Below, piece by piece: positions 5,027 to 33,401 of a stretch of 33,401 nt of DNA; the stretch's first letter is position 1; each line of letters starts with the position of its first letter. Source of the DNA: a virus (Duplodnaviria; Heunggongvirae; Uroviricota; Caudoviricetes); IMG/VR virus record IMGVR_UViG_2724679239_000006; one strand, written 5' to 3'. A program made the translations under genes and the position numbers. The notes beneath the pieces are model-generated. The model did not search any database. It worked only from the letters and a program-made list of their open reading frames with translations, and was not told where the DNA came from.

Positions 5027-7810
5027 GTGGCAACGGAGTACATCAGAGACTGGCAACAACCACGCCATGCAGTCGGTCGCGAGGGAACGGGGGAGCCTGT
5101 CCGCCCCTCCCTTCTTTCTTCCTGGCTGGATGCCTACCGGGCAGAGAACGAGCGCCGCCAGGAAATGGCTGATGCGGCGTTCTCCGCTGCACCACTGGGC
5201 AATCTGATTAATAAAAGCCTGGACGCACAGGAAAAACAGGACAAAGTCATCACACTGGCAAGAGAAGCCAGAAAGCAGGCACGCGGTGCGGTGGATGAAG
5301 CCATGGCCTCGCTGCGTCTGCTGCCGTCCTATCTGCGTGATCCGCTTATCCGCCATCTCTCTTTCCTGCGCAAAAAACAGGAATCTGGCCACCAGAAAGG
5401 CAAAAAGAACCAGCAGGCGGAACGCTATGCGAGCGGAACCCTGCGCAAAATATTCGAACGCCTGGCCCGCACCGACCGTCGCTGGCTGACTCCGGGTTAT
5501 CGCTCCCTTGCCGGACGTGAACGTCTGGACGATTTGCTGTACCTGCCACAGCTCAACAAGCACCAGATACAGACGCTGGCCGTCATGACGGCGGCAATGT
5601 TCAGCAGCACCTTCGAAAAACTCTGCGATGGCTGTGGCGCGACCGACGGCGAGCTGACCATGGATATAACGCTGAAGGCGTATCAGATGCTGGCCCGCAT
5701 GGCGTTACATCTGCACACAGTGCCGCCGCATTATGACGCACTGACAACAGACAAAGACCGGAAGAACGAACCGGACACGGAACTGCTGCCGGGTGCAATC
5801 CTCCGCCTGACCTGTGCGGACTGGTGGAAACGCAAACTGTGGCTTTTACGTTGCGAATGGAGAGAGGAACAACTCCGCGCTGCCTGTCTGGTTTCCAGAA
5901 AAACATCACCCTATCTGAGTCAGGACGCATTAAGTGAATTTCGCGCACAGCGCGAGAAAACACGCGATTTCCTGAAAAGTTTCATGCTGGAAAATGAAGA
6001 CGGGTTCACGATTGATCTCGAGACAGTGTATTACGCGGGAGTAAGTAACCCGGTCCACCGTAAGGCAGAAATGATGGCCACCATGAAGGGACTGGAACTT
6101 CTGGCCGAAGCCCGTGGCGACAGAGCGGTGTTTCTGACTGTCACCTGCCCGTCAAAATACCACGCTACAACAGAGAACGGTCATCCGAATCCCAAATGGA
6201 ACGGCGCCACCATGCGCGATTCCAGTGATTACCTGGTTAACACTTTTTTTAAGGCGGTCCGCAAAAAACTGAATCGCGACGGCCTGCGCTGGTATGGCAT
6301 CCGCACGGTGGAGCCACACCATGACGGCACCGTGCACTGGCACATGATGGTCTTTGCACATCCTGAAGAAATCGACAGCATCGTGGACATCACCCGTGAT
6401 ATTGCCATTCGCGAAGACCGCCACGAGCTGGGCAATGACATAACTCCGCGCTTTAAGGCAGAGTACGTCGACGGTTCGAAAGGTACGCCGACCAGCTACA
6501 TCGCCACCTACATCGGAAAGAACCTGGACAGCCGCGCCGTGGATGGCATTGACCCGAAAACAGGCAAGCCACGCGTTGATCACGAAACCGGAAAATCAAT
6601 GGCCGAGAGCGTGGAACGCGCCATCGGCTGGGCGCGCCTTCACCGCGTCCGCCAGTTCCAGTTCTTTGGTATCCCCTCCCGTCAGGTATGGCGTGAACTC
6701 CGCCGCCTTGCCAGTCAGATGGCCCGCAACCCGGAAGGTCCACAACGTCTGGAAAATGACGCAATGGATGCGGTACTCGCTGCCGCTGATGCCGGGTGTT
6801 TTGCCACCTACATTGAGAAACAGGGTGGCGTACTTGTTCCACGCAAGGATTACCTGATTCGCACCGCCTACGACCTCGCAGAAGAGCTGAACGATTACGG
6901 CGAGCAAAGCGTACAGATTTACGGGATCTGGTCGCCACAAATCGGGGAATCTTCCCGCGTGTGCACGCACCCGGATAACTGGAAGCTGGTAAGACGTAAA
7001 CCGGAAGCGGAAGACAGCGCCCGCGAAAATGGTTTTGACCTTCAGGGCGGCCCTGCCGCCCCTTGGACTCGTGGCAATAACTGTCCCCGTGTACAGGAAA
7101 CGGACAACAACGGGACAGAACGGCCAGCACCGTGGCCGCAGCTTCCTGACGGCGTTGATGTGGATGAATGGATGCGCTCACTGAAACGGCACGAAAGCCG
7201 GGCGCTGATGCGTTCGCTGCGTGACAAACAGGCAAAAAACAACAGTGATGAAATGCAGAACTGGACACAGAGCCGCAAACAGCCGCGGCCTTTGCCTGAT
7301 AACCACGAGTTACTCGCTAAAGAATGGCGGGAGTCTGCCGAATCTCTCGGCCTGCATATCGGTGAACAACAGATGCAGCACCTGTTACGGGGCGGCAGTC
7401 TGTACGTTGACGGCAGCATCATTGCACCGCAGGGATTTGAAATTGTACGTAAACCGGATACCCGACCGGACAGCCGAATCACACAACTCTGGCAGCGCCT
7501 GAGCCGTAATCACGGCGTAAACAGCACGGAAATCCGCCATAACCCGGTTTCCAGCTATCTGAAACAGCTCGGGGCATCAGACCCAGAAGCCGCCGCACGC
7601 CTGGCATCCACAATTCAGCAGGACCAGAACACCATGAAAACACCCGTTACCGTACTTTCTGACATGCTGCGCACCATCCGTGACGCAGAGCACGCACAGA
7701 GAATCAGTGAAACCACTGAACGCGCCCGCCGCAAAGCAGACCTGCTGCGGTGGCCTGACCAGCGAAAACAAAAAACAGACAGAAACGGGATTCACAAATC
7801 CCGTAAATGA
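5027..7810 (+). CDS. A: Rolling-circle replication initiation protein (P2 gpA-like)
   Basis: 927-aa ORF (GTG start at 5027; true start uncertain); HUH-type motif GTVHWHMMVFAH and tyrosine-rich motif SYIATYIGKN typical of P2 A/phiX A-type relaxases. Confidence 0.85.
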   Translation: MATEYIRDWQQPRHAVGREGTGEPVRPSLLSSWLDAYRAENERRQEMADAAFSAAPLGNLINKSLDAQEKQDKVITLAREARKQARGAVDEAMASLRLLPSYLRDPLIRHLSFLRKKQESGHQKGKKNQQAERYASGTLRKIFERLARTDRRWLTPGYRSLAGRERLDDLLYLPQLNKHQIQTLAVMTAAMFSSTFEKLCDGCGATDGELTMDITLKAYQMLARMALHLHTVPPHYDALTTDKDRKNEPDTELLPGAILRLTCADWWKRKLWLLRCEWREEQLRAACLVSRKTSPYLSQDALSEFRAQREKTRDFLKSFMLENEDGFTIDLETVYYAGVSNPVHRKAEMMATMKGLELLAEARGDRAVFLTVTCPSKYHATTENGHPNPKWNGATMRDSSDYLVNTFFKAVRKKLNRDGLRWYGIRTVEPHHDGTVHWHMMVFAHPEEIDSIVDITRDIAIREDRHELGNDITPRFKAEYVDGSKGTPTSYIATYIGKNLDSRAVDGIDPKTGKPRVDHETGKSMAESVERAIGWARLHRVRQFQFFGIPSRQVWRELRRLASQMARNPEGPQRLENDAMDAVLAAADAGCFATYIEKQGGVLVPRKDYLIRTAYDLAEELNDYGEQSVQIYGIWSPQIGESSRVCTHPDNWKLVRRKPEAEDSARENGFDLQGGPAAPWTRGNNCPRVQETDNNGTERPAPWPQLPDGVDVDEWMRSLKRHESRALMRSLRDKQAKNNSDEMQNWTQSRKQPRPLPDNHELLAKEWRESAESLGLHIGEQQMQHLLRGGSLYVDGSIIAPQGFEIVRKPDTRPDSRITQLWQRLSRNHGVNSTEIRHNPVSSYLKQLGASDPEAAARLASTIQQDQNTMKTPVTVLSDMLRTIRDAEHAQRISETTERARRKADLLRWPDQRKQKTDRNGIHKSRK

Positions 7811-7880
7811 GCGAAAAACACGCCGCGATATATGAAACGCGCACAAAACAGGCAAAAGCGGGATTTCAGAATCCCGTAAA
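7785..7880. promoter_or_regulatory. Two copies of a 23-bp motif CGGGATT-N5-AATCCCGTAAA (7785..7807 and 7858..7880) bracketing the probable parM promoter
   Basis: Direct repeat of an internally palindromic motif; first copy overlaps the 3' end of gene A, second lies about 30 bp upstream of the parM start. Confidence 0.35.
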
Positions 7881-7911
7881 CGATTAATTAATCAACATAA
7901 GGAAAATCGAC

Positions 7912-8871
7912 ATGAAAATTTGCATCGACGACGGCTCCACCAACATCAAGCTGGCATGGACTGAGAACGGCGAACGCCGCAACGCCATCAGCCCGAACAG
8001 CTTCAAGTCGGAATGGTCTGCGCCGTTCGGTGGCACGCAGCCCGCGAACTACATGCTTGATGGCGTGCGCTATGGTTTTGATCCGGTCAGCGATCGCTTT
8101 GTCCAGACGACCGACACGCAATACCAGTACAGCGATGTGAATGTCATTGCCATTCATCACGCGCTGGTCAAATCAGGTATCACACCACAGGAAGTGGACG
8201 TGGTTGTCACTCTGCCACTGAGCGAGTATTTCGATACAAACGCACAGCCGGACATGGCCAACATCAACCGCAAAAAAGCGAATGTCCTGCGCCCTGTGGA
8301 GTACCAGAACGGTGAAGCATTCACTATCCGCAACGTGCGGGTTATGCCTGAATCCATTCCGGCTGGCTTTAAGGCACTGGCTGACATGAGTCCGTTTGAA
8401 TCTCTGCTGATTGTGGATTTAGGCGGAACAACGCTGGATGTGGCAAAGGTTCAGGGGCAACTGGCAGGCATCAGCCAGGTATTTTGCGATCCACATGTGG
8501 GCGTTTCCCTGATGACCGATGCCGTGTTGTCGGTGATGGCCGCCAACGGCATGCGTACCAGTCACCACGTCGCCAGTACCGTTATTGAACATCGTCACGA
8601 TGAAGCCTGGCTGCGCCGGCACATCCACAATGACGCGCATTACAACAGCCTGATGGCAGTTATTCGTGAAAAGGAGGAGACACTAAAACAACGCGTGATC
8701 CGCGCACTCGCGGGCTTTTCGGGTTACGGGCGGGTGCTGGTTGTCGGTGGAGGAGCGGAGATTGTGGCACCCGCAGTCCATGAAGTCTATGGAGTCAATG
8801 CGAATTTCATCACAGACGGGGTGCCACAGTTTGCTCTGGTTAACGGTCTGTACGCTATGGATAAGGAGTAA
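7912..8871 (+). CDS. parM: Actin-like segregation ATPase ParM/StbA
   Basis: 319 aa; N-terminus MKICIDDGSTNIKLAW and colinear conserved blocks (YSDVNVIAIHHAL, VMPESIPAG, LIVDLGGTTLD, VVGGGAE, LVNGLY) match plasmid R1 ParM as remembered. Confidence 0.85.
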   Translation: MKICIDDGSTNIKLAWTENGERRNAISPNSFKSEWSAPFGGTQPANYMLDGVRYGFDPVSDRFVQTTDTQYQYSDVNVIAIHHALVKSGITPQEVDVVVTLPLSEYFDTNAQPDMANINRKKANVLRPVEYQNGEAFTIRNVRVMPESIPAGFKALADMSPFESLLIVDLGGTTLDVAKVQGQLAGISQVFCDPHVGVSLMTDAVLSVMAANGMRTSHHVASTVIEHRHDEAWLRRHIHNDAHYNSLMAVIREKEETLKQRVIRALAGFSGYGRVLVVGGGAEIVAPAVHEVYGVNANFITDGVPQFALVNGLYAMDKE

Positions 8872-8877
8872 CCCTCC

Positions 8878-9189
8878 ATGGCGACATTAACCAGAAGAAT
8901 AAGTTTCTATCTGAAGCCAGCCGCCGTCAAGAACGAAGGCAAAGCATGCGACTGGCTGGACAGCCTTACACCAGAAGCCCGCAAAAGCGGCCAACGCGTG
9001 GCTTTTCTGGCCGGGCTGGCACTTCTGAAAATGAATCCGGCAGAGGCTTACCGACTGTCTGCATGGGCTGATGATGAGGCGTTATCAGTGACACAAACCA
9101 GGGCAGAACGCCACATGTTACAGCCAGCGCCCACCGCACAGATAACCAGTCAGATAGCCGGAAATATCCGGGCGTTATTTCCCGAATAA
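8878..9189 (+). CDS. parR: ParR-like centromere-binding adaptor (RHH)
   Basis: 103 aa directly downstream of parM; RRISFYLKPAAV...CDWLDSLTPEARKSGQRVAFLAGLAL parallels the R1 ParR N-terminal region. Confidence 0.7.
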   Translation: MATLTRRISFYLKPAAVKNEGKACDWLDSLTPEARKSGQRVAFLAGLALLKMNPAEAYRLSAWADDEALSVTQTRAERHMLQPAPTAQITSQIAGNIRALFPE

Positions 9190-9240
9190 CACAACATCAG
9201 GGCGCTGGCCAGTAGGGGCAAGGCTATAAATAGATGAGCA

Positions 9241-9263
9241 AAACGCCCTCCTCCAGGGCGTTT
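9241..9263 (+). terminator. Rho-independent terminator downstream of parR
   Basis: 9-bp stem AAACGCCCT/AGGGCGTTT with 5-nt loop followed by a T-rich tract. Confidence 0.5.
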
Positions 9264-9270
9264 ATTTCAA

Positions 9271-9300
9271 TGCACAATAGTGCACAAATTTGCACAATTT
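9271..9300. repeat. Three tandem 10-bp iterons TGCACAAWWW
   Basis: TGCACAATAG TGCACAAATT TGCACAATTT in helical phase; a fourth GTGCACAAA near 9362 and a GGATCCGT direct repeat at about 9341..9360. Confidence 0.4.
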
Positions 9301-9552
9301 TTTTGAACGACTTTTTACCCTTCCGGCCCGCGTGGTGGCTGGATCCGTCAAGGATCCGTGCGTGCACAAAAAAACGCGTTTTTTCTGCGCGCAGGTGACG
9401 GGGGAACAGCCCGCGTTTCAGGGGGTAAATAGCATTCCCCGAGCGATGTCGCAGCGACACAACAGAATGGCTGTATTTCTCACGCTGAGCGTGAAAAAGA
9501 CGTAAGGGTTTTTGATTTGATGGGTTGAAAGGTAAGGCCGTCAAAATCGCAC

Positions 9553-9575
9553 TGAGGCGGCGAGAACATACAGTC
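9553..9575. other. Candidate cos (cohesive end) site
   Basis: GAGGCGGCGAGAACA resembles the remembered P2 cohesive-end sequence GGCGAGGCGGGGAAAGCAC (12 of 15 positions) and lies about 150 bp beyond the portal gene 3' end, as in P2. Confidence 0.25.
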
Positions 9576-9671
9576 AACGCGGTGGGATTGCGTAAGAGTC
9601 TGACCGTCGATGGTGGCGATAAACTGGAAGGCGTCGTGAAATTATCTGACTGATACAGGAGCTGGAGAGTC

Positions 9672-9694
9672 GGGGCATAAATTTTTTATGCCCC
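9672..9694. terminator. Strong hairpin terminator between the cos region and the portal gene 3' end
   Basis: 10-bp stem GGGGCATAAA/TTTATGCCCC with 3-nt loop, A/T tracts on both sides. Confidence 0.5.
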
Positions 9695-9721
9695 GGCGAA
9701 GCAGCAGACAAGCGAAGCGCG

Positions 9722-10768
9722 TCAGGCTGTGGGCTGGGTGTCTAACAGTGCGTAAGGGTTAAAGCGGATCACCTCTTCGCCCAGCCAGTCATTGATGTGC
9801 TTCATGGCCTCCATGACGGGCATCAGCTCGTTAATTGCGTAAACCCGCGCGGCCTTCTCCACATCACCAAACGCACTTTTTTCACCCGGCATCGCCCCCA
9901 TCAGTTGCGGCGGAACGCGGTGCGCAGCCAGCACATCATCACGGGATGCCGCCTTAACATTCATGAACTCATCCTTTGCGGTGATCTGCTGGAACGGCAA
10001 AATTTGCCCCCCCTCTTTGCCCCCGTTGGGCGCATGAATGAGCACGTTTTTAAACGCACCACCACCACGTGCACCCTGTAGCGTTTCTTTCAGGGAGTCC
10101 ATGCTTTCGCGGTTTACCTGCGCTGCACCGATGTAGATGATGCACCCGGCGTGGGATCCGTTGTCGTAATACAGTTTTCTGAACATGTCCGCCGAATGAG
10201 ACAGGCTGGCCGAGAGTAATGCGCCGAGATATTCCGGCATGCCGTAGATTTCCTGGTTAATGTCAGGATTCATCAGGTGGCACACTTTACCAGGGCGAAA
10301 CTGAAACGCGTCCTTACCATCCTGCACATACCACCATGATTCAAGATCGCTTCCGCGTCGCATGTATTTCGCCAGGGCGTGCCGTAATTTAAGCGGTTCG
10401 CCGAGCATATTGCTTCGAAGCTCAAGGAATGCGTTACCGAACACAAACCAGTCCAGCGCCAGCGCCGAGAAATCCTGCCGGGAAAGCAACGGGTGCGGGA
10501 TGTAGCAACCGAGTAATACATTGCGCTTAAAGTAAAGCGCAGACTGATGCCAGGACGTTTGCCGGGCAGCTCTTGCCAGACCGTACCAGTCCACCGGGGT
10601 TTCATACCACCGCCCGTTATCAGCACAGTACATATTGTCCAGCAGGTCATGCCCAGTCAGGCGATAAGGACCATCAAATGTGAATGCACTGAGCGACGAT
10701 TCTTTCCTGAGCACATCAGCGAGATCAATGCGTGAACTCATGCGCACTTTTTTATTTTTTCTGCTCAT
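9722..10768 (-). CDS. Q: Portal protein (gpQ)
   Basis: 348 aa; position, size and orientation match P2 Q; ATGA overlap with the terminase gene stop. Confidence 0.9.
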   Translation of the reverse strand: MSRKNKKVRMSSRIDLADVLRKESSLSAFTFDGPYRLTGHDLLDNMYCADNGRWYETPVDWYGLARAARQTSWHQSALYFKRNVLLGCYIPHPLLSRQDFSALALDWFVFGNAFLELRSNMLGEPLKLRHALAKYMRRGSDLESWWYVQDGKDAFQFRPGKVCHLMNPDINQEIYGMPEYLGALLSASLSHSADMFRKLYYDNGSHAGCIIYIGAAQVNRESMDSLKETLQGARGGGAFKNVLIHAPNGGKEGGQILPFQQITAKDEFMNVKAASRDDVLAAHRVPPQLMGAMPGEKSAFGDVEKAARVYAINELMPVMEAMKHINDWLGEEVIRFNPYALLDTQPTA

Positions 10769-23695: not shown

Positions 23696-23720
23696 AAGGC
23701 CCGTTCGGGCCTTATTTTTT
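23696..23720 (+). terminator. Hairpin terminator between convergent chaperone genes
   Basis: AAGGCCC-GTTC-GGGCCTT followed by a T-run. Confidence 0.5.
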
Positions 23721-24255
23721 ATTCAGGCTTTTGTGGCCATTCAGGATTTGCCGTATCCACGCGGCTGAGCAGAACGCTGTAGCGTTCCCAGCCATCCAGC
23801 CGTGTACGTTCCTCATCTGTTGCCAGATTCATCCTGACGGCACGTTCCAGCAGCCGGATGACTGATTCAGCTTCGGAAAGCAAAGCTGCTTTTTGTGATT
23901 CAGCCTGCTGTTGTAATTCATCTTCTGTATAGACTCTTTTAATTACAGCACCATCCTTAATCATCCAGTTGCCGGAAATATCAGCGCGTCGGTTTACCGT
24001 AATATTGGGTAACTCAATAACACTCATTCCCTCTGGATTAATCAGGGATGCGTCTTTCTCTATGCAGCAAATAATACCCTCCTGGTTATATGCCACTTTT
24101 AACGTGTCTGGCTGGAAGTTTTTTTGTTCCTCATACCAGTTCTTACCTTCTTCCGACCATAACCAGACAACATCAAATTCTTTTGTAAGTTGATACTGTT
24201 CGATAGTTTTTGGATTTCCTGCTTTAATATTTTTTAAATGCTGCATATTAAGCAC
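23719..24255 (-). CDS. Alternative tail fibre assembly chaperone (G-prime), inverted orientation
   Basis: 178 aa; clearly paralogous to gpG ([21 protein letters not shown] versus [21 protein letters not shown]). Confidence 0.85.
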
Positions 24256-25217
24256 GTCCTACATTGTACCACTGACCATTAATATATTTCTGAACAGGCG
24301 CATAGACAGGCCACTCCCAGTCGTCATCAAAGTTACCACCTGTAAGAACACACCCCGCAGGGAGTGTTCCACCTTCGCCACCCCATTTTATTCCGCTCTG
24401 GTTAGCTCCCATGCGAACGTCACGCACATAGCGGGAATCAAAATTTCCATAATTTCCGGGAATAATTTGTGAACCACAAAGCCAGTTCCCGTTATTGTCC
24501 ATATACGCCTGACCGTCAGTACCATTGGCTGTCCTTGAGTTATTAATCATGTAGATGCCAAATTGCTTGTTCCCCAGTCCACCTATCATGAACTTGCGGT
24601 CAGCGTGATTCTGGCGAAGCAACGCCTGAGCGCTATCAGTGTTAACTATATTTTTCCCAAAGATAGCGTTGTTATCGCGCATCTGAATCCACATACCATT
24701 ACTGCTGTTAATAGCAAAACGGTCTGAAAGCGTCTCCCCTGAAACATTAAGGCCACGCCCCATCGAAACAGCGCCAGTAGCGTTATTAATCCATAATGGC
24801 CTTAATCCGTTATAAGTCCCCATGTTGTCACCGGAGTTTGTCAACATGAAGTATGTGTTTGAACCATCATTACGAATAAAGAATCCGTAATTACCATAAG
24901 CAATACGAAGGCCGTTTGCTGATTTTGATATGACTTCGCCATTTACAATGGCATTAACAAGAATATTTAGCGCATCCCATTTCAGCGTCATCAGGTCTTT
25001 TGTTGTTGTGCTTTGTTTGCTTCTCCATTTGAAATATTCATTGCCGTTATCTCCCGTTTCAAACCACATGAATGAATCAGTGTCACCATCGGCATCATTT
25101 TTAAATCCAATCTTCGCCCAGTCAGAATTCCGAATCCAGGCAAGGATTGAGTCGTATTCAAAAGTAAGCCCACCGGACAAGGTATCGCCTGTCTTTTGGA
25201 CGGCGTTACCAGCCTTG
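24248..25217 (-). CDS. Alternative tail fibre C-terminal segment (H-prime), promoterless and startless until inversion
   Basis: Open frame runs through the right crossover site (track ORF 24248..25276); contains [10 protein letters not shown] matching [10 protein letters not shown] at the H crossover; C-terminal motif [10 protein letters not shown]. Confidence 0.8.
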
Positions 25218-25242
25218 TTTACCGTTTCCTGCAAACCGAGGT
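25218..25242 (-). other. Invertase crossover site (right inverted repeat)
   Basis: Exact reverse complement of 22201..22225. Confidence 0.65.
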
Positions 25243-25305
25243 TTTTGATAATGGTCGTTTCTGGCCCACATGGCATGATTTGTGCTTTTGAGCGGGAGAT
25301 TCAAT

Positions 25306-25905
25306 GTGCTGATTGGCTATGTACGCGTGTCAACAAATGACCAGAACACGGATTTGCAACGCAATGCGCTCAATAGCGCAGGATGTGAACTGATTTTTGA
25401 AGATAAAATCAGCGGAACAAAGTCAGCCAGACCGGGATTGAAAAAACTGCTCAGAACACTGTCAGAAGGCGATACGCTCGTTGTCTGGAAACTGGACAGG
25501 CTGGGCAGAAGCATGAAACACCTGATCACACTGATTGAGGAATTACGGGAAAAAGGTGTCAATTTTCGTAGTCTGACGGACAGCATTGACACATCAACAC
25601 CCATGGGGCGCTTCTTTTTTCACGTCATGGGGGCTTTAGCTGAAATGGAACGCGAACTGATAGTTGAACGTACCAGAGCAGGACTGGCAGCAGCCCGCGC
25701 ACAGGGGCGCATTGGTGGGCGTCGTCCGAAACTGACAAAAGAGCAACATGAGCAAATAGCAAGGCTGATTAAAAACGGCCATGACAGAAAACAACTGGCC
25801 ATAATTTACGGCGTTGGTATATCGACGATTTATCGTTACCACCCCGTGGGAGAATCAACCGGGACAACTGAGAAGACCAGAGGAAACAAAAAACCGCTAA
25901 TCTGA
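25306..25905 (+). CDS. Serine DNA invertase, Gin/Cin/Pin/Hin family
   Basis: GTG start giving MLIGYVRVSTNDQNTDLQRNAL; catalytic serine motif, GDTLVVWKLDRLGRSMKHL, and C-terminal HTH; near-identical in pattern to Gin/Pin as remembered. Confidence 0.9.
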   Translation: MLIGYVRVSTNDQNTDLQRNALNSAGCELIFEDKISGTKSARPGLKKLLRTLSEGDTLVVWKLDRLGRSMKHLITLIEELREKGVNFRSLTDSIDTSTPMGRFFFHVMGALAEMERELIVERTRAGLAAARAQGRIGGRRPKLTKEQHEQIARLIKNGHDRKQLAIIYGVGISTIYRYHPVGESTGTTEKTRGNKKPLI

Positions 25906-32809: not shown

Positions 32810-33070
32810 ATGTTCCGTTGTCCGCTTTGTGGCGCATCTGCCCGAATCCGCACCAGTCGTTCGGAAAATGATTCAGATACCGTACGGAAAAAATATTACC
32901 AGTGTAACAACCTGGAATGCGGCGTATGCTTCTCAACACTGGAGGCTTTCCATAAATTCACATCGAAACACGCCCCCGGCGTTCACTCTTCAGAGGGCAT
33001 CCCGTGGAATGAGCTACCAGCTTCGCACAGGGGAAACAACCAGATGAGTTTGCCATTACCTCAGAATTAA
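32810..33070 (+). CDS. ogr: Ogr/Delta-family zinc-finger late transcription activator
   Basis: 86 aa; MFRCPLCG...YYQCNNLEC C4 zinc finger as in P2 Ogr; RBS GGGAGG. Confidence 0.85.
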   Translation: MFRCPLCGASARIRTSRSENDSDTVRKKYYQCNNLECGVCFSTLEAFHKFTSKHAPGVHSSEGIPWNELPASHRGNNQMSLPLPQN

Positions 33071-33130: not shown

Positions 33131-33343
33131 ATGGCTGGAGGGAATACCCGAAGGCCGGATGTGGAAAGGCCCCGGAAAACATCTCTGTTTAACCGAGGCC
33201 CTGACCATCTAACCTTAGCAAGTGATAGGTTAGCGCCTCCCCAAAAAAGGAGCAAGCGCTATGTCGCAAAAATCGCTTATGGCCATCACGTTCTGCGTGA
33301 CGGTAATCCTCATCATCTGGATGCTGCACGGTTCGCTGTGTGA
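33131..33343 (+). CDS. Mok-like overlapping reading frame of the hok locus
   Basis: 70-aa ORF starting upstream of and overlapping the hok-like gene in another frame, as expected for mok. Confidence 0.3.
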   Translation: MAGGNTRRPDVERPRKTSLFNRGPDHLTLASDRLAPPQKRSKRYVAKIAYGHHVLRDGNPHHLDAARFAV

Positions 33344-33401
33344 AATACGGATGAGCTTCTGGGGAGCGGAGTTTGCGGCGTTCTTACAGTGTAAGCAGTA
33401 A
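33261..33401 (+). CDS. Hok/Gef-family type I toxin (46 aa)
   Basis: RBS AAGGAG 8 nt upstream; translation MSQKSLMAITFCVTVILIIWMLHGSLCEIRMSFWGAEFAAFLQCKQ has an N-terminal TM helix and the conserved SLCE(I/L)R...E.AAF..C core of Hok proteins; stop codon is the last triplet of the window. Confidence 0.6.
   Translation: MSQKSLMAITFCVTVILIIWMLHGSLCEIRMSFWGAEFAAFLQCKQ

Follow-up and report, generated by a model that had tools for sequence, protein, structure and literature searches.

The ParMRC partition systems of plasmids R1 and R100 are ordered as two blocks of repeats followed by parM and parR. The centromere (parC) of R1-type systems is built from two sets of five direct 11-bp iterons that flank a promoter; R100 parC shares the two-block layout and has 11-bp iterons, and IncL/M plasmids combine it with 10-bp iterons and a spacing of 73 bp. 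The C-terminus of R1 ParR is the ParM-binding peptide, and the stability loci of R1 are parMRC and hok/sok. Here we describe a parMR pair of this family that is hosted not by a plasmid but by an integrating P2-like phage, found in the IMG/VR record IMGVR_UViG_2724679239_000006 (33,401 nt; the full stretch is hereafter called the window). We propose, with moderate confidence, that the pair and the repeats upstream of it form a functional type II (ParMRC-type) partition cassette, a trait of the P88-like branch of these phages, which would stabilise the circle replicated by the gene A protein (gpA) during a transient plasmid-like phase.

Two precedents come from integrated elements. Like the phage, the SXT/R391 integrative and conjugative elements (ICEs) that carry srpMRC encode an integrase and reside in an integrated state. 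Their excised circle replicates via a rolling-circle initiator and is stabilised by this actin-type partition system together with a toxin-antitoxin module; srpMRC is expressed only upon activation of the element, and its experimentally verified centromere, srpC, comprises four direct/inverted repeats that are bound pairwise (Carraro et al, 2015; PMC4489591). However, SrpM and SrpR share only a distant relationship with R1 ParMR, and no domain can be recognised in SrpR, whereas the phage proteins are clear members of the R1 family; equally, the function of srpMRC on the ICE has been demonstrated, whereas the phage system is known here from sequence. The second precedent is the CGP3 prophage of Corynebacterium glutamicum, in which the actin-like filament former AlpC is co-transcribed with the DNA-binding adaptor AlpA. 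AlpA binds upstream of its own operon (at alpS), and the genes are induced early, with circular phage DNA as their target (Donovan et al, 2015; PMC4446434). AlpC and AlpA differ from the phage ParMR pair in representing another actin-like family in a Gram-positive host, and their demonstrated role is in replication efficiency, not partition. The only other phage ParM match in the phage collection was the StbA-type ParM of the P1-like phage-plasmid D6 (46.5% identity), and D6 is a 91-kb plasmid prophage, unlike the integrating P2-like phage.

The pair itself is already on record. In the records of Escherichia phage P88 and its relatives, the two genes bear the annotations ‘plasmid segregation protein ParM’ and ‘partition protein’. 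The gpA-gpQ locus was the subject of an analysis by Rousset et al (2022), whose supplementary tables include ‘StbA + Plasmid_stab_B’ there, and the protein of Citrobacter phage PhiSM appears as a ‘fitness’ gene in Magaziner et al (2019). The first-pass annotation of the window had presented an actin-type segrosome as undescribed in this phage family, a claim that these records contradict: the pair is annotated and published, and is ordinary for the P88-like lineage. Our literature search returned no functional study of a P88-like parMR pair and, for CP-933T and partitioning, nothing specific to the parMR genes. What is added here is the linkage of the pair to one lineage, the selection acting on parM, the conservation of the ParR domain and tail, the reassignment of the repeats downstream of parR and the identification of upstream palindromes as the likely centromere.

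The ParM and ParR homologues

The pair is encoded by two closely spaced genes on the plus strand.

7912-8871, plus strand: parM, actin-like partition ATPase of 319 amino acids (aa), starting MKICIDDGSTNIKLAW (identified by Pfam, PHROG and phmmer)
8878-9189, plus strand: parR, putative centromere-binding adaptor of 103 aa (PF10784 Plasmid_stab_B, E=3.6e-24)

Profile searches confirmed the first-pass assignment of both genes. ParM matched StbA_N (PF06406) at 6.7e-82 over residues 1-157 and the ParM C-terminal domain (PF21523) at 4.1e-65 over residues 159-316, each in full length, as well as phrog_691 (‘partition protein’) at 7.3e-87. The phmmer comparison with R1 ParM (1mwk) gave E=1.6e-91 over residues 2-316, an end-to-end alignment in which the nucleotide-binding and hydrolysis motifs IDDGSTNIK, MPESIPAG, DLGGTTLD and GGGAE are identical or near-identical to 1mwk. 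NCBIfam returned only sub-threshold matches for ParM and ParR, and a PADLOC search gave no family match for either protein. Identity reaches 46% with R100 ParM and at most 52.6% with any true plasmid ParM. The phage proteins form a clade apart, with no ParM falling between 53% (IncI-gamma/K1, IncL/M) and 90% identity.

ParR belongs, like the R1/R100 proteins, to PF10784, which covers its residues 6-75, and it also matched phrog_2515 at 5.7e-54. Its gene starts 6 nt past the parM stop, and an AAGGAG sequence lies within the end of parM. We aligned 29 family members together with the ParR proteins of R100, IncI-gamma/K and IncL/M plasmids. The N-terminal 67 residues are strongly conserved, with R6, R7, I8, F10, Y11, L12, K13 and P14 invariant; this invariant segment occupies the position of the DNA-reading strand in ribbon-helix-helix proteins and corresponds to an RR-I-F-L segment of R1/R100 ParR. 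It is followed by a variable linker rich in proline, glutamine and alanine (residues 68-89) and by a C-terminal tail, N96-I97-R-A-L100-F-P-E, that is conserved in 30 family members (N96, I97 and P102 invariant). N96 and L100 are common to the R100, IncI-gamma/K and IncL/M proteins, in keeping with a K/R-N-x-x-x-L tail shared by phage and R1/R100 ParR, and the tail would be the part of ParR that captures ParM filaments. The main difference is one of length: the phage protein has 103 residues compared with 116-147 in plasmid ParRs, about 35-45 central residues fewer. ParR had no match among PDB sequences even at E<=1. An AlphaFold2 monomer model showed helices over residues 20-61, a disordered linker and a C-terminal helix (87-100) at low confidence (mean predicted local distance difference test score, 57.5), as expected for an obligate dimer.

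Two parR alleles circulate, encoding proteins of 103 aa and 104 aa that are 53% identical, with a synonymous divergence (dS) of 1.3-1.8 compared with 0.25 for parM. They diverge only past about codon 18 (position 8932 onward in the window; loci L003, 4679-4993, and L009), and therefore the N-terminal segment and the upstream region are common to both. The gene of roughly 100 codons thus contains a mosaic junction at which the alleles recombine, with the N-terminal segment, parM and the upstream repeats staying together.

Distribution of the module and selection on parM

The pair lies between replication gene A and the cos site and portal gene.

5027-7810, plus strand: replication gene A (gpA, 927 aa; PF05840, E=4.2e-129)
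9722-10768, minus strand: portal gene, flanking the interval; the terminase gene is also on this strand

The first-pass annotation had placed the pair in this interval of an integrase-bearing P2-like phage, and each element of that description held: gpA carries the PF05840 domain, the portal gene lies on the minus strand and the integrase is present. The window runs from the integrase gene, which is intact, to a hok gene, and P2-type synteny is maintained throughout, in the gene order of the P88 annotation. Nucleotide identity to P88 is 92-97% across gpA, parMR, cos and portal. The interval from gpA to portal is ~93% identical to P88 (genus Xuanwuvirus, Peduoviridae), PhiSM and a dozen similar records. 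The phage in the window is a P88-like (Xuanwuvirus) member of the Peduoviridae.

The parMR pair was found in P88 (NC_026014, gp17/gp18) and 13 other Peduoviridae records, at ~93% nucleotide and 95% ParM identity and in the same position after gpA. We defined the gpA lineage by tblastn at >=80% identity; other P2-like gpA matches were <60% identical. The 14 phage records within the lineage are exactly the 14 that bear ParM, and none of the 364 records with gpA below 60% identity does. Across a sample of 86 loci (80 from IMG/VR, the phage records and this window) parMR was present in all 86, and ParM was full length and intact in 85. The pair is therefore fixed in the backbone of these phages and linked to a single gpA lineage, and it has probably been inherited vertically. 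This does not fit the first-pass view of parMR as variable cargo; the variable segment lies downstream of parR. Among complete E. coli genomes, 1303 of 5426 (about a quarter) carry the module, always annotated beside a ‘replication endonuclease’, and they include O157:H7, O104:H4 and the enteropathogenic E. coli strain E2348/69.

A scan of genome contigs with ParM found only 3 loci, because its patterns reach no further than close relatives. One of the three, the contig NZ_JBQPOM010000071.1, is assigned to Vagococcus sp. and contains part of a P88-like prophage whose ParM identity is 93%; this is most likely assembly contamination with enterobacterial DNA. Phage 500465-2 (NC_049343.1) was considered as a control lacking ParM and rejected, because the prophage in this record is truncated, lacks the early region and is accompanied by host genes. 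Although it is deposited as a ‘complete genome’, frameshifts split its late genes, host genes (fabB, mnmC and a major facilitator superfamily transporter) occupy several kb and a transposase is present, and it is unfit as a reference phage.

The ratio of nonsynonymous to synonymous substitution (dN/dS) was 0.09-0.12 for parM (at dS ~0.25), 0.16-0.25 for gpA and 0.23-0.57 for parR. Nucleotide diversity of parM at codon positions 1, 2 and 3 was 0.010, 0.006 and 0.068 (73 distinct sequences), and the gene is under strong purifying selection. Taken together with the separate phage clade, this indicates that the capture of parM is old and that the gene has been maintained. A remnant of an ancient plasmid capture, now in decay and without function, would agree with the fact that function has not been demonstrated to date, yet a parM dN/dS below that of gpA and the full-length state of nearly all sampled copies make it scarcely credible.

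The region upstream of parM contains the likely centromere

The sequence preceding parM contains a 42-nt direct repeat in two copies.

7769-7810, plus strand: repeat block 1, candidate parC, with palindrome CGGGATTCACAAATCCCG at 7786-7803; overlaps the last codons of gene A (repeat search)
7842-7883, plus strand: repeat block 2, candidate parC, with palindrome CGGGATTTCAGAATCCCG at 7859-7876; 36 nt before the parM ATG (repeat search)

Each copy contains the palindrome CGGGATT-N4-AATCCCG, with no other exact copy in the window. The repeats that the first-pass annotation had noted at 7785-7880 are thus real and make a credible centromere candidate. An R1-like iteron array was sought in 7700-7912 and none was found; only the CGGGATT half-sites were in excess, with four in 213 nt where shuffled sequences averaged 1.9 and had no more than 3. 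A block 1 copy with <=3 mismatches was present in all 85 scorable loci, palindromes lay upstream of parM in every locus examined, and the two blocks were spaced by 73 bp in 84 of the 85, the spacing also seen in IncL/M parC. As in R1 and R100, two repeat blocks thus precede parM, but the phage blocks are two palindromes (four half-sites) in place of two sets of five direct iterons, with no consensus promoter in between. Based on this, the two CGGGATT-N4-AATCCCG palindromes 73 bp apart are the likely centromere, to which ParR would bind. No covariation was found between the parR allele type and palindrome variants, as expected given that the N-terminal segment of ParR is invariant.

The palindromes could instead be tandem intrinsic terminators for leftward (antisense) transcription, with the true parC elsewhere or absent. 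Both are called as minus-strand terminators with T-rich tails, their hairpin energies are about -10 kcal/mol on either strand, and some of the phages have minus-strand cargo genes downstream of parR. However, sequence variants alter one arm without compensation, and one common variant, AATCCTG, makes the minus-strand stem weaker. In their fixed 73-bp phasing, and in having one block on each side of a variable core, the repeats mirror plasmid parC, and no further repeat candidate was found near the par operon. We consider terminators an improbable explanation of these repeats.

Transcription of the parMR pair

We found no plus-strand terminator between gene A and parM, and a crude consensus scan of 7600-9800 found no sigma-70 consensus promoter. 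The pair is followed by a candidate terminator.

9241-9270, plus strand: intrinsic-terminator-like hairpin AAACGCCCT / AGGGCGTTT with a perfect 9-bp stem, followed by a T-rich tail

The whole structure predicted for RNA of 9230-9275 has a folding energy of -15.2 kcal/mol. The hairpin is kept in P88 and in the circular P88-like genome pZ1323PEC0009-2 (described below), where it follows cargo genes, and it probably ends the A-parM-parR transcription unit. From the missing terminator and consensus promoter and the hairpin after parR, it follows that parMR is probably read with the early replication operon, as a co-transcript with gene A. The pair would then probably be silent in the repressed lysogen and be expressed following infection or excision, while the phage genome replicates outside the chromosome.

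Such timing would also suit a purely lytic role, in which the monomeric circles that gpA produces would be positioned or spread by ParM filaments for efficient replication and packaging, with no contribution to inheritance when the cell divides. The cassette directly follows gene A in what is probably the early operon, and AlpAC is likewise induced early and needed for efficient replication of the excised prophage. P2-type phages package from circular monomers, which also counts for this role. On the other hand, most P2-like phages, including P2 and 186 and the 364 records with distant gpA, manage without ParM, and a segregation machine that works by pushing is of no obvious benefit in a cell near lysis. 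We therefore rate an exclusively lytic role as unlikely, although it deserves consideration.

The region downstream of parR

Beyond parR, a variable cargo site (9190-9270) adjoins a conserved block next to cos.

9271-9369, plus strand: TGCACAA repeats, three in 10-bp phase at 9271, 9281 and 9291 (9271-9297) and a fourth at 9363-9369 (motif search)
9396-9414, plus strand: cos-like 19-mer GGTGACGGGGGAACAGCCC, conserved in Enterobacter phage phiT5282H

Across loci, 81 to 3715 nt separate the parR stop from the conserved block near cos (537-3715 nt in most relatives), and a variable hotspot therefore lies between parR and cos. The site is empty in the window (81 nt), as it is otherwise only in two IMG/VR contigs with identical ParM; P88 has a 705-bp insert with gp19 and gp20. 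Other open reading frames (ORFs) on both strands of 7577-9577 had no Pfam family match.

The gpA-gpQ interval is a known defence hotspot, and one could suppose that R1-type plasmids or rival phages are the target of interference by ParR or the centromere. The pair does not behave as defence cargo of this hotspot does: its presence is invariant in the lineage and neither protein has a PADLOC match. Phage ParR is only 25-29% identical to plasmid ParRs, tblastn with ParR found no true R1-type plasmid at E<=1e-3, and the sequence of the candidate centromere bears no relation to the R100 or IncL/M iterons. A promoter active in the lysogen is probably lacking as well. Incompatibility or exclusion as the function of the pair is very improbable.

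Four of the six TGCACAA copies in the window sit at 9271-9369, where they form the left edge of a block common to all P88-like loci whatever the cargo upstream. The first-pass annotation had suggested that these iterons (9271-9300) might serve as a centromere. The repeats are real and clustered, but the proposed role was rejected: they are conserved at 37 of 38 positions, beside a conserved cos-like site, in phiT5282H (Novemvirus), which lacks ParM and instead encodes an AAA-ATPase/S8-peptidase pair. The TGCACAA repeats therefore belong to the packaging region and not to the par module, and 9271-9414 is probably a recognition element for terminase or a host factor. The cos-like sequence agrees with the P2 cohesive end at 12 of 19 positions.

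Episomal state and the Hok homologue

The window ends with a second gene of a kind known from plasmid stability loci.

33261-33401, plus strand: Hok/Gef-family toxin gene, 46 aa (PF01848, E=3.1e-7); the window ends at its stop codon

A Hok-family gene occupies the matching place in P88 (gp52) and in pZ1323PEC0009-2, and in the window it adjoins ogr (32810-33070). An Rfam scan of the whole window gave no match, including none to a Sok-like RNA. The phage therefore has a homologue for each type of stability locus in R1, parMR and hok, and the toxin gene, as a second plasmid-type stability determinant, is possibly related to parMR in function.

These genes invite the reading that ParMRC, gpA replication and Hok together give low-copy persistence over many generations as an alternative to integration, and a stable plasmid-prophage lifestyle has been suggested (Rousset et al, 2022). 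An episomal form does exist: pZ1323PEC0009-2 (NZ_CP148288.1) is a complete circular P88-like genome of 34,461 bp with int, gpA, parMR and hok, filed as a plasmid of the complete genome of E. coli Z1323PEC0009. The PLSDB gene table for this record shows no coding sequence at the expected portal, sheath and tape-measure positions, which points to frameshifts, possibly sequencing errors. Whereas phage-plasmids are normally extrachromosomal, 1449 of the 1451 places of the module in complete E. coli genomes are chromosomal and the integrase is kept intact. Tblastn with ParR matched 8 of 72,556 plasmid records, of which this was the one phage-sized circular episome, and it could reflect excised replicating DNA in culture; the others comprise records between 228 kb and 1.4 Mb in size, a fragment from Shigella and the distant ParR of a Rahnella plasmid. 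By analogy with P2, gene A would moreover lie in a repressor-controlled early operon, and replication in the repressed state is not expected. A stable plasmid-prophage is accordingly quite unlikely.

A partition cassette for the excised phage circle

We propose that the parMR pair and the upstream palindromes act on the circular, non-integrated phage genome. ParR dimers would bind the four CGGGATT half-sites of the two palindromes and, through their C-terminal tails, would capture ATP-ParM filaments; these would elongate and push sister circles apart. The cassette would thereby guard the gpA-replicated circle against loss or clumping at cell division, as srpMRC does in SXT/R391, and the Hok toxin may back up this stabilisation. 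A role on the excised circle is supported by the precedents in integrated elements, namely srpMRC and the AlpAC system of CGP3. Incompatibility and a common stable plasmid state are disfavoured by the genomic evidence.

Several observations weigh against this proposal. The candidate centromere offers four half-sites only, unlike the R1 array of ten 11-bp iterons, and intergenic diversity (0.058) is just modestly below that at four-fold sites of parM (0.081). Both palindromes have the appearance of minus-strand intrinsic terminators, and variants in a single arm are common and lack compensatory changes. The crude promoter scan leaves room for a promoter of parMR's own. Finally, the sequence is compatible with action on a transient episome, during lytic replication or on a stable plasmid.

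Tentatively, the proposal can be extended to a dual lifestyle, in which, following infection or excision, the circle replicated by gpA would be maintained over generations as a low-copy plasmid, segregated by ParMRC via the four-half-site centromere and with Hok policing its loss. We regard this extension as rather unlikely.

Other features of the window

The window gpA is only ~31.6% identical to P2 gpA, and at 927 aa it is long compared with P2 gpA (761 aa). The part of gene A that encodes the C-terminal extension (3′ end of the gene, 7512-7768) is almost neutral, with diversity of 0.045, 0.047 and 0.086 at codon positions 1, 2 and 3.

Between the integrase gene and a helix-turn-helix repressor-like gene, the minus strand of 1008-2035 holds two ORFs, at 1008-1355 (DUF2511) and 1385-2035 (phrog_5825, with weak similarity to membrane proteins). 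The int and C genes of P88 are adjacent with nothing in between, unlike the window, and 1008-2035 looks like a second cargo site. A DNA invertase gene (25282-25905; phrog_125) lies beside an opposite-facing cassette of tail-fibre and tail-fibre-assembly genes (23719-25276, minus strand). The same arrangement is found in P88, and the region 23719-25905 looks like a Gin/Cin-type invertible host-range switch.

Implications for P88-like prophages

The function of this module matters because it is both widespread, occurring in about a quarter of complete E. coli genomes, and strongly selected. If an excised or pre-integration circle is stabilised as proposed, a major prophage family would rely on plasmid-style partition for its lysogenisation efficiency, its rate of prophage loss and perhaps its carrier states, and the boundary between prophage, ICE and plasmid would be blurred. 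Were the less likely dual lifestyle to hold, very common E. coli prophages would be facultative phage-plasmids, the viral counterpart of the SXT/R391 ICEs.

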